The notes under the pieces are model-generated. The model made no database searches. It was given only the letters and a program-made list of their open reading frames with translations, and was not told where the DNA came from. Source: Escherichia phage WPEC2. Taken from it: a stretch of DNA of 64,000 bases. Position numbers and translations under genes: made by a program. Below are positions 35,481 through 36,455 of the stretch, piece by piece; the stretch's first letter is position 1; each line of letters starts with the position of its first letter. Where the stretch lies: sequence record PV691511.1; one strand, written 5' to 3'.

Positions 35481-36455
35481 TTAAACAGCAGCTTCTTCTT
35501 TTTCAGGGAAGATAAAGCTTGCAATAACACCAAGAGCTAATGTGCCTAGAACAATCATCAGACTTACGTTAGGGGAAATATCATGCGGGAGGAATGACCA
35601 CTTGGCATGAAGTGTTTCACCGAACGGGTGATACATAAGTTTAGCACCAACAAACACCAGAACCACAGCAACAGCTTTCTCTAAGTGAACTAGATATTTA
35701 ACAGCTACACTTAATACAAAGAAAAGTGCACGTAAACCAAGAACAGCCATCAGCATTGCAGAATAAACTAGCAGAGGTTCTTGTGTCACACCGATCACAG
35801 CCGGAACTGAATCAAAAGAGAAGACAATATCTGTAAGCTCAATAACAAACACACAAAGAAGAGCAGGAGTTGCATATTTGATACCATTCTTAATCGTAAT
35901 GAACTTTTCACCATCCAGTGCACTGTGCACAGGCAGAATTTTACCTACTAAACGAACAGCCCAATGTTTAGAGTAGTCAATATCCTCTTCTTCATCTCCA
36001 CCTTTGATGATAGCCACGGCAGACCAAGCTACAATCAAACCGAACAACACTTGAACCGACCAATGAAGGTTAAACAAAGCGGTGCCTGCTGCAACAAAAA
36101 TACCTCGGAAGACAATGGCTCCTGCAATCCCCCAAAGTAAAATCTTATGTTGGAGATGTGTGCTCTTAATTCCAAAGCTTGCAAAAATTGCCATGAACAC
36201 CATTAGGTTATCTACAGAAAGACTCTTTTCCAAGACATAACCACTTAGGAAAAGCGCGGCGAACTCTTTACCATGTTCTACCCAAATGAATGCGTAATAT
36301 CCTAAAGCTAAAGCAATCCAAAAAACAGACCAAAGCAAAGCAGATTTGATTCCAATTTCTTTATTCTCTTTATGACCAAAGAAATCGATACCAATAGACA
36401 ATGCTAAAATACCAACTAAAACAACTACATCGATAATTGGGAAACCAAGTTGCAT
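35481..36455 (-). CDS. TerC-family integral membrane protein
   Basis: multiple TM helices, LSVDNLMVF and ELTDIVFSFDSVPAV segments typical of TerC. Confidence 0.6.
   Translation of the reverse strand: MQLGFPIIDVVVLVGILALSIGIDFFGHKENKEIGIKSALLWSVFWIALALGYYAFIWVEHGKEFAALFLSGYVLEKSLSVDNLMVFMAIFASFGIKSTHLQHKILLWGIAGAIVFRGIFVAAGTALFNLHWSVQVLFGLIVAWSAVAIIKGGDEEEDIDYSKHWAVRLVGKILPVHSALDGEKFITIKNGIKYATPALLCVFVIELTDIVFSFDSVPAVIGVTQEPLLVYSAMLMAVLGLRALFFVLSVAVKYLVHLEKAVAVVLVFVGAKLMYHPFGETLHAKWSFLPHDISPNVSLMIVLGTLALGVIASFIFPEKEEAAV

Follow-up and report, generated by a model that had tools for sequence, protein, structure and literature searches.

A TerC-family membrane protein gene of Escherichia phage WPEC2 and its possible place in an abbreviated phage Ter system

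Background

Resistance to tellurite, colicins and phages is conferred by the Ter system, which has also been tied to the virulence and gut fitness of Klebsiella and Escherichia coli O157. A Ter-dependent stress response system was reportedly set out by Anantharaman, Iyer and Aravind in 2012. This report concerns a terC gene of Escherichia phage WPEC2 (sequence record PV691511.1), located in a 64,000-nucleotide stretch (64 kb) that was analysed as a whole and is referred to below as the window. The gene product is assigned by sequence to the ter-operon branch of the TerC family and is tentatively read as the membrane arm of an abbreviated Ter system of the phage subfamily Stephanstirmvirinae.

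Ter gene sets have been described in jumbo phages, such as Acinetobacter phage ME3 and Caulobacter phages (PMC7824862), and in Pseudomonas phage phiPsa374 (PMC9796965), and the authors of the phiKp34 genome, from a Klebsiella phage, remarked on its ter genes (PMC8386662). According to a hypothesis of Iyer et al. (PMC7824862), Ter proteins serve jumbo "and certain other related smaller tailed phages" as a weapon against phages that superinfect. In Klebsiella pneumoniae, a terC mutant loses resistance to Zn, Mn, tellurite and phage (PMC12054061). Elsewhere in the family, Mn2+ export by E. coli Alx requires residues E86, D92, E213, D216 and D222, with D24, D73 and D284 being dispensable (PMC10197570). 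MeeF and MeeY of Bacillus subtilis, TerC-family metal chaperones for secreted Mn enzymes, export Mn at a low rate, and this export is coupled to Sec-dependent secretion (PMC10550928, PMC12096827). Annotations of TerC exist in phAPEC8-type phage genomes, and phage Ter sets that include a phosphoribosyltransferase (PRTase) and HAD arm have been reported and interpreted (Iyer 2021; the phiKp34 paper).

The terC gene and its product

The window belongs to a phAPEC8-like Phapecoctavirus of the Stephanstirmvirinae. Its terC region is 100% identical to that of Escherichia phages WPEC1, WPEC4 and WPEC6 and 95–97% identical to many phAPEC8-group Phapecoctavirus genomes, and the RefSeq label for the gene in these relatives is "integral membrane protein TerC [Escherichia phage phAPEC8]". 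The gene is located as follows.

35481–36455, minus strand: TerC-family inner-membrane protein of 324 amino acids with nine predicted transmembrane (TM) helices, based on the open reading frame (ORF), profile matches and an AlphaFold2 model.

The ORF begins with ATG, and its 324-codon product matches this span exactly. Pfam PF03741 (TerC) matched the product with an E-value of 4e-40 and 137.9 bits (cutoff 27.8) over profile positions 2–177 of 178, and NCBIfam TIGR03718, "TerC/Alx family metal homeostasis membrane protein", scored 318.5 bits (cutoff 246.4) over positions 6–302 of 303. PHROG 7180, "membrane protein", also matched (E=1e-96). The NCBIfam models of the YkoY and YjbE types scored below their cutoffs, at 65.5 bits (cutoff 138.5) and 33.8 bits (cutoff 134.8) respectively. 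A preliminary description, made from the sequence alone, had called a 324-amino-acid TerC protein at these coordinates, and the three profile collections agree with that call; the hidden Markov model (HMM) search assigned TerC and no other transporter family. The link to metal or tellurite handling that was drawn in the same place is the accepted annotation of the family.

The AlphaFold2 model, built from an input alignment of 30 homologues, contains nine long helices (pLDDT 79, pTM 0.77), and a hydropathy scan is consistent with this layout. A 99%-identical protein was assigned nine TM segments by DeepTMHMM (PMC10698182), and the multi-pass topology that had been proposed for the product is thereby upheld. 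The residues required for Mn2+ export by Alx correspond to E76, D82, E206, D209 and D215 of the phage TerC. These positions are invariant in 8 of 8 sequences of one alignment (A1) and in 30 of 30 of another (A2), which cover the window protein, six other phage TerC proteins and 29 further homologues. In the model, E76 and D82 are located in helix 63–94 (TM3) and the other three in helix 197–224 (TM6), the two long helices of the protein. By these alignments, the cation-export motif of the phage TerC is intact.

Pairwise comparison with relatives of approximately 96% DNA identity gave a ratio of non-synonymous to synonymous substitution rates (dN/dS) of 0.025–0.027, from 23–31 synonymous and 2–3 non-synonymous differences, and comparison with a divergent allele gave 0.10. 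The terC gene is therefore a real, intact gene under strong purifying selection.

Relationship to other TerC proteins

The phage TerC exhibits 32–34% identity to E. coli Alx and 47–48% identity to the TerC of IncHI2-type plasmids by tblastn (approximately 50% in the tree alignment). The closest cellular TerC proteins, from Pasteurellaceae, Vitreoscilla, Roseospira, Spartinivicinus and others, are 54–57% identical, and all four of the closest cellular relatives that were sampled are encoded within a Ter locus. These four loci encode TerB and TerD paralogues and a TerY-type vWA protein with a PP2C phosphatase and a kinase, and they also carry a module of PRTase_2/TRSP, HAD, StiP(PRTase_1)/PELOTA and a C-C lyase. 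The IncHI2 locus likewise pairs a PRTase module with ter genes: an operon of ATP-grasp, PRTase, a 257-amino-acid protein, StiP and aldolase genes is divergent from terZABCDEF.

In a neighbour-joining tree with 100 bootstraps, the TerC proteins of the Stephanstirmvirinae and the Grimontviridae form one phage clade (99%) beside a clade of cellular Ter-locus proteins (100%). A Vibrio phage TerC joins the plasmid TerC (100%), a Brevundimonas phage TerC stands apart, and Alx forms a long outgroup branch. From these placements it follows that phages gained TerC at least three times. The phage TerC is, on sequence grounds, a member of the ter-operon branch and not of the Alx type. Recent capture of a host alx gene was considered and is excluded by the 32–34% identity to E. 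coli Alx and by the position of Alx as the outgroup.

Homologues of the protein were found by tblastn in 174 of 50,697 phage records as full-length copies, and the groups represented include Stephanstirmvirinae, Grimontviridae, Vibrio N4-like phages and Brevundimonas jumbo phages. A literature search on phAPEC8 together with TerC found nothing. In the Grimontviridae, as seen in Cronobacter phage A24 (locus L002, 2239–4781), ribose-phosphate pyrophosphokinase-like and nicotinamide phosphoribosyltransferase-like genes precede TerC and two TerD genes follow it; the first two correspond to an NAD-salvage or reconstitution pair.

Linkage of TerC to a HAD–PRTase_3 pair and to other Ter genes

Two genes of the cluster next to terC recur with Ter genes in several unrelated phage lineages.

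38087–38743, minus strand: HAD-superfamily hydrolase, the stop of which overlaps the PRTase_3 start by 8 nt.
37267–38094, minus strand: PRTase_3, a ComF-like phosphoribosyltransferase (PF15610) and a recurrent companion of phage Ter genes.

Pfam matches bear out that macro, PRTase and HAD genes neighbour terC, all on the minus strand. The preliminary description had placed terC just upstream of this cluster; the adjacency stands, while the direction does not, as terC is 3′ of the cluster by transcription and upstream of it only in plus-strand coordinates.

In phiKp34, which encodes a TerC 88% identical to that of the window, TerC, a TerF-type vWA protein, two TerD proteins, TelA, and HAD with PRTase_3 are encoded within approximately 10 kb. 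A 350-kb metagenomic phage contig encodes TelA, vWA-TerF, a TerC-like protein, HAD, PRTase_3 and TerD consecutively, and its TerC-like protein is of the DUF475-type branch, aligning with the phage TerC over the E...DN motif only. Sixteen PRTase_3 loci from IMG/VR were searched with profiles built in this analysis. TerC or a TerC-like protein, TelA and vWA-TerF were present within 10 kb in ten of them, nine of which also had TerD. Half of the ten Ter-bearing loci (5/10) are Stephanstirmvirinae-type contigs with the order HAD, PRTase_3, ..., TerC, ..., TelA, ..., vWA-TerF, TerD. The ten also include contigs with a TerC-like protein of the DUF475-type branch. PRTase_3 is directly preceded by HAD in all loci outside the window (18/18), and at least four phage lineages, this subfamily among them, have Ter partners beside TerC or a TerC-like gene.

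A tblastn search with TerD, TelA and vWA of phiKp34 had indicated that the genus carries TerC only, and this was overturned by an annotated, divergent TelA in the relative tuntematon and by profile HMMs. The notion of a genus that lacks TelA and TerD was wrong because the profiles find vWA-TerF and TerD in Stephanstirmvirinae-type contigs and in WPEC1. In canonical relatives, TerD is located approximately 7 kb from TerC, and TelA and/or a TerF-type vWA protein is encoded directly downstream of TerC in tuntematon, phAPEC8, phi92 and others. In GenBank records of the E. coli phAPEC8 and phi92 types, vWA-TerF and TerD are mostly labelled as hypothetical; their divergence lets them escape tblastn, and they are found by profiles. 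This gene context supports the view that the position of the PRTase and HAD genes beside terC is not incidental and that together these genes would make up the left-hand part of an abbreviated Ter system carried by the phage.

Break in colinearity and the remaining Ter genes

Colinearity between the window and tuntematon (92.7% nucleotide identity) extends from 40100 to 33268 and stops exactly at the start of the TelA-like gene of tuntematon.

33268–33271, no strand: end of colinearity with canonical Phapecoctavirus genomes, at the position of the TelA-like start codon.

Past the junction at 33268, the window holds ten clustered tRNA genes that are encoded on the opposite strand. WPEC1 shares the sequence of the window as far as 33271 and then departs from the window and from tuntematon alike, and its junction carries two inverted fragments of the TelA 5′ end. 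A TelA, vWA-TerF and TerD block that starts exactly at the canonical TelA start is encoded 77 kb away in WPEC1, so that the abbreviated Ter set is complete in the lineage. The window and WPEC1 form a patchwork of 100%-identical blocks that differ in order and orientation. This patchwork, the inverted TelA fragments and the break at 33268–33271 suggest that the WPEC genomes are rearranged or mis-assembled. Searches by tblastn and profile for the ligand-binding proteins TerD and TerB found none in the 64-kb window, and a cryptic TerD among the neighbours of terC was rejected when the 197-amino-acid and 116-amino-acid proteins gave E=0.3–0.4 in profile comparison.

Exchange of the terC core

The flanks of terC in the window are 96.5–100% identical to those of tuntematon at the protein level (NrdG, the 201-amino-acid protein, HAD, PRTase_3, the 73-amino-acid and 116-amino-acid proteins, a lipoprotein, the 197-amino-acid protein and a SprT-like protein), whereas TerC is 73% and the macro protein 81% identical. 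Nucleotide identity drops from 97–100% to 55–80% only at approximately 36377–35538, corresponding to TerC codons 27–306, and at approximately 37157–36858 within the macro gene. The crossover points of the terC allele fall inside the ends of the ORF. Because the drop within terC is localized in this way, two TerC core alleles circulate by recombination in one genus. The allele in the window is closer to that of Klebsiella phage phiKp34 (88%) than to those of other Phapecoctavirus members (72%).

Expression signals of terC

The gene is preceded by a 79-nt spacer, and the following signals were identified around it.

36504–36531, minus strand: sigma-70-like promoter match TTGACA-16 nt-TAAGAT, a 10/12 match to the consensus, in the 79-nt spacer upstream of terC.
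36473–36491, minus strand: 8-bp GC-rich hairpin GCGGGGAA-tag-TTCCCCGC, placed 5′ of the Shine-Dalgarno sequence within the short leader.
36462–36468, minus strand: strong Shine-Dalgarno sequence, AGAGGAG.
35450–35474, minus strand: intrinsic-terminator-like hairpin AGCCTCC-ttcg-GGAGGCT followed by a T-run, 6 nt past the terC stop.

The leader as measured from the −10 hexamer is approximately 48 nt and holds one 8-bp hairpin, which leaves the ribosome-binding site unsequestered and is probably a 5′ stabilising stem-loop. The promoter match, the hairpin and the terminator are kept in phiWec190, in which TerC is only 72% identical; in phiKp34 the promoter match is absent and the terminator is retained through compensatory changes. 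A repeated phage promoter family was ruled out, since TTGACA-N16-17-TAAGAT occurs just twice in the window and the extended motif once without mismatch. A literature search for a transcriptome of Phapecoctavirus infection found none.

An Rfam search upstream of terC gave no riboswitch, in what is a weak test, as the E. coli alx leader used as a control also failed. The solid argument is one of length, as the 79-nt spacer leaves no room for a riboswitch. With regard to the control, the Rfam 15 covariance models give no yybP-ykoY match and miss the known Mn2+/pH riboswitch in the alx leader of E. coli K-12 (locus L006, 2250–2650) even at E<=10, and Rfam negatives for Alx-type leaders are unreliable because of this.

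Possible roles of the phage TerC

The preliminary description had found no obvious role for TerC in a lytic phage. This is still fair, although exclusion of superinfecting phages is a published hypothesis (PMC7824862; PMC8386662). The reading that is tentatively preferred here, at somewhat less than even confidence, is that TerC may act as the membrane arm, translocating cations, of an abbreviated Ter system that Stephanstirmvirinae phages conserve and that would protect the infected cell. TerC would be made without metal sensing, either from the sigma-70-type promoter or by read-through from the HAD–PRTase operon. In the inner membrane it would move a divalent cation outward (of the Mn2+ class, possibly Zn2+) through an acidic path along TM3 and TM6 and, together with the other Ter proteins, would change the envelope and ion state of the infected cell. 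In this altered state the cell would be protected, for the length of the latent period, against superinfecting phages, colicins, and oxidant or metal stress. This protection is proposed because plasmid ter operons give phage-inhibition, colicin-resistance and metal-resistance phenotypes, because bacterial ter operons inhibit phages and confer resistance to colicin, tellurite, Zn and Mn (PMC12054061), and in line with the hypothesis of Iyer et al. (PMC7824862).

Several observations weigh against an abbreviated Ter system at this locus. TelA, vWA-TerF and TerD are absent from the 64-kb window, in which the profiles find only TerC, PRTase_3 and HAD, and in six of the 16 PRTase_3 loci from IMG/VR the surrounding 10 kb are free of Ter genes. 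TerC and TerD occur in Grimontviridae and Vibrio phages that lack PRTase_3, and these phages and the Ter-free PRTase_3 loci together indicate that the parts of the module are separable. Searches with blastp and phmmer revealed no similarity between the phage HAD and PRTase_3 proteins and the HAD, PRTase_2 and StiP proteins of cellular Ter loci, so that the resemblance to the biosynthetic arm of cellular Ter is one of enzyme class and linkage and not of orthology. PADLOC has no model that matches TerC, PRTase_3 or HAD. The terC gene is flanked by a promoter-like site and a terminator of its own, and the exchange of its core is independent of the neighbouring genes, which fits an autonomous gene equally well. 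Finally, a literature search found no experiment on any phage TerC, and transport, substrate and phenotype are inferred.

In an alternative that is rather unlikely, TerC alone would be a constitutive Alx-like exporter of Mn2+ or other divalent cations, or a metal chaperone, and its neighbours unrelated accessory genes. It would tune metal for phage enzymes, or metalate exported phage proteins in the manner of MeeF and MeeY of B. subtilis, which offer a precedent (PMC10550928). The conserved export-critical acidic residues, the autonomous promoter-like site and terminator, the swapping of the core independently of the flanking genes and the Grimontviridae phages that carry TerC without PRTase_3 all agree with a stand-alone metal protein, as does the location of terC in the NrdD/NrdG region and, in phiKp34, beside a BFD-like ferredoxin. 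Against these points, phylogeny and gene context group the phage TerC with the TerC of Ter systems and not with Alx, TerC or a TerC-like gene has Ter partners nearby in no fewer than four phage lineages, and TerD genes follow even the Grimontviridae TerC. Quite unlikely is a system for a small molecule and not a metal, in which PRTase_3 and HAD would make a nucleoside-like compound and TerC would export it or transduce its signal. The idea belongs to the published Ter model (PMC7824862), and it draws on the invariance of the HAD–PRTase_3 pair, its adjacency to TerC or TerC-like genes of two TerC branches, and the PRTase, HAD, StiP and lyase modules that occur in cellular Ter loci too. Every characterised member of the TerC family handles metal cations, however, and the conserved intramembrane carboxylates suit cation binding; the product of PRTase_3 is not known, and a literature search on PF15610 found nothing.

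A role in counter-defence, in which TerC would disrupt the Ter system of the host, or a different host defence that depends on the envelope or on metal, perhaps through mixed complexes, is judged very unlikely. Phages are inhibited by host ter operons (PMC12054061). Neighbouring genes match the DarG (E=1.5e-9) and AbiEi (E=8e-13) models and look like antitoxins, and two divergent TerC core alleles among otherwise near-identical phages are as expected under conflict. The gene is nevertheless kept in phages that grow on K-12 MG1655; K-12 is not known to carry a ter operon, and for that reason a Ter target would be absent from this host. Moreover, the phage carries a whole Ter set and not a lone decoy. 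That terC is a passenger or a mis-called ORF without function has a negligible probability: a decaying passenger or mis-called ORF is ruled out by the dN/dS of 0.025–0.1, the occurrence in 174 phage records, and the kept motif residues and expression signals.

In a more speculative and distinctly improbable proposal, the compact phage module would be a self-contained exclusion device that combines a small molecule with a membrane component. HAD and PRTase_3 would make a ribosylated signal or toxin, and TerC, TelA, vWA-TerF and TerD would turn it into an envelope or ion change that blocks rival phages. The exchange of TerC alleles that are 73% identical between phages that are otherwise 97–100% identical would then reflect ongoing conflict. 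If this were true, the K-12-growing phages would be the first tractable minimal model of Ter function.

Other genes of the window

The genes adjacent to terC that fall outside the HAD–PRTase_3 pair are listed below.

36769–37254, minus strand: macro-domain protein, DarG-like, identified by Pfam and by a match to the PADLOC DarG model (E=1.5e-9) that concerns the macro half of the antitoxin.
36535–36756, minus strand: 73-amino-acid protein (phrog_16065) that has two TM segments and is encoded between the macro gene and terC.
35088–35438, minus strand: 116-amino-acid acidic protein (phrog_27498) after terC, with a 44.5%-identical counterpart in phiKp34 (gp125) that is also located after TerC.

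Since its gene is located elsewhere in phiKp34, the macro protein probably does not belong to the Ter module. It may reverse DNA ADP-ribosylation of the DarT type and act in phage counter-defence. The 201-amino-acid protein directly upstream of HAD (38745–39350, minus strand) has no Pfam match and was hit by the PADLOC models for the AbiEi antitoxin (E=8e-13, profile positions 4–192 of 195); it may be a phage mimic of the antitoxin that acts against AbiE abortive infection.

Downstream of terC, at 34467–34904 on the minus strand and between terC and the TelA position, an ORF read from the internal Met that is annotated in relatives encodes a product that begins with MKKLALILIGCIFLTAC followed by DD, corresponding to a lipoprotein signal and lipobox. 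The predicted lipoprotein continues with a Gly/Ser-rich region and then a basic tail. Superinfection exclusion is a frequent function of phage lipoproteins. The ORF at 33109–33855 (minus strand) encodes a protein with a SprT-like Zn-metallopeptidase domain, and it is 248 amino acids long as against 182 in tuntematon because the junction at 33268 replaces the stop codon and 3′ end of the gene.

The tRNA cluster extends from 30763 to 32688 on the plus strand, opposite to the surrounding genes, and comprises Met, Arg, Ser, Asn, Thr, Gly, Gln, Pro, Ile and Met genes; GC content rises locally over the cluster, and the GC skew flips there. At 24246–27008 on the minus strand there is an RNA-repair-like cluster that encodes an AAA_33 kinase-like protein, an RNA ligase of the T4 Rnl1 type, a calcineurin-like phosphoesterase and a protein with a cREC_REC domain (cyclic-phosphate processing receiver). 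RNA ligases are also encoded close to HAD–PRTase_3 in three unrelated phage contigs (L014–L016).

Significance

What this analysis adds to the existing annotation is the placement of the phage TerC in the ter-operon branch rather than the Alx branch, the residue-level conservation of the export motif, the invariant HAD–PRTase_3 pair, a quantified linkage to Ter genes, the divergent vWA-TerF and TerD of coliphages, the swap of TerC core alleles and the broken colinearity in this assembly. A large and well-sampled group of lytic coliphages, many of which were isolated on K-12 MG1655, carries a minimal Ter set of HAD, PRTase_3, TerC, TelA, vWA-TerF and TerD. With this minimal set, intact export residues and natural allele swaps, these phages are a convenient genetic system for the study of Ter function and competitor exclusion. 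When genomes of therapeutic phages are screened, the label "tellurium resistance" should be read as a phage-competition or virocell gene and not as a transferable resistance determinant.

Comparison with known systems

MeeF and MeeY of B. subtilis belong to the same superfamily as the phage TerC, which the YkoY- and YjbE-type models match only below their cutoffs. A secreted Mn enzyme encoded by the phage was not found, though no search aimed at one was made. E. coli Alx (YgjT), a riboswitch-controlled Mn2+ exporter, shares with it the Pfam and NCBIfam family, nine TM segments and the five export residues. The identity between the two is 32–34%, however, and the phage TerC is found in the context of a Ter module whereas Alx is a lone gene; the 79-nt spacer of the phage gene has no long regulatory leader, in contrast to the approximately 280 nt upstream of alx.

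The TerC of ter operons (terZABCDEF, for example of the IncHI2 R478 type) is of the same branch as the phage protein, with 47–57% full-length identity, nine helices and the acidic motifs, and the phage lineage likewise has TelA, a vWA-TerF-type protein, TerD, and a PRTase and HAD pair. The phage set is shorter, and no TerB, TerZ/TerA, TerY/PP2C/kinase, StiP, ATP-grasp or lyase was seen in it. Its PRTase is PRTase_3 instead of PRTase_2 or PRTase_1, its HAD is not detectably related, and the TerC proteins of the Stephanstirmvirinae and Grimontviridae form a separate clade (99% bootstrap). In the window, the TelA/vWA/TerD half is missing.

Among phages with described Ter genes, phiKp34 (FBKp34; PMC8386662) has an 88%-identical TerC and the same components as the phage lineage of the window, namely TerC, vWA-TerF, TerD, TelA, HAD and PRTase_3. 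The arrangement differs, as HAD–PRTase_3 is directly upstream of TerC in the window and approximately 8 kb downstream, past TelA, in phiKp34. For the Ter sets of phiKp34 and of the jumbo phages, the same role has been proposed in print as is proposed here.

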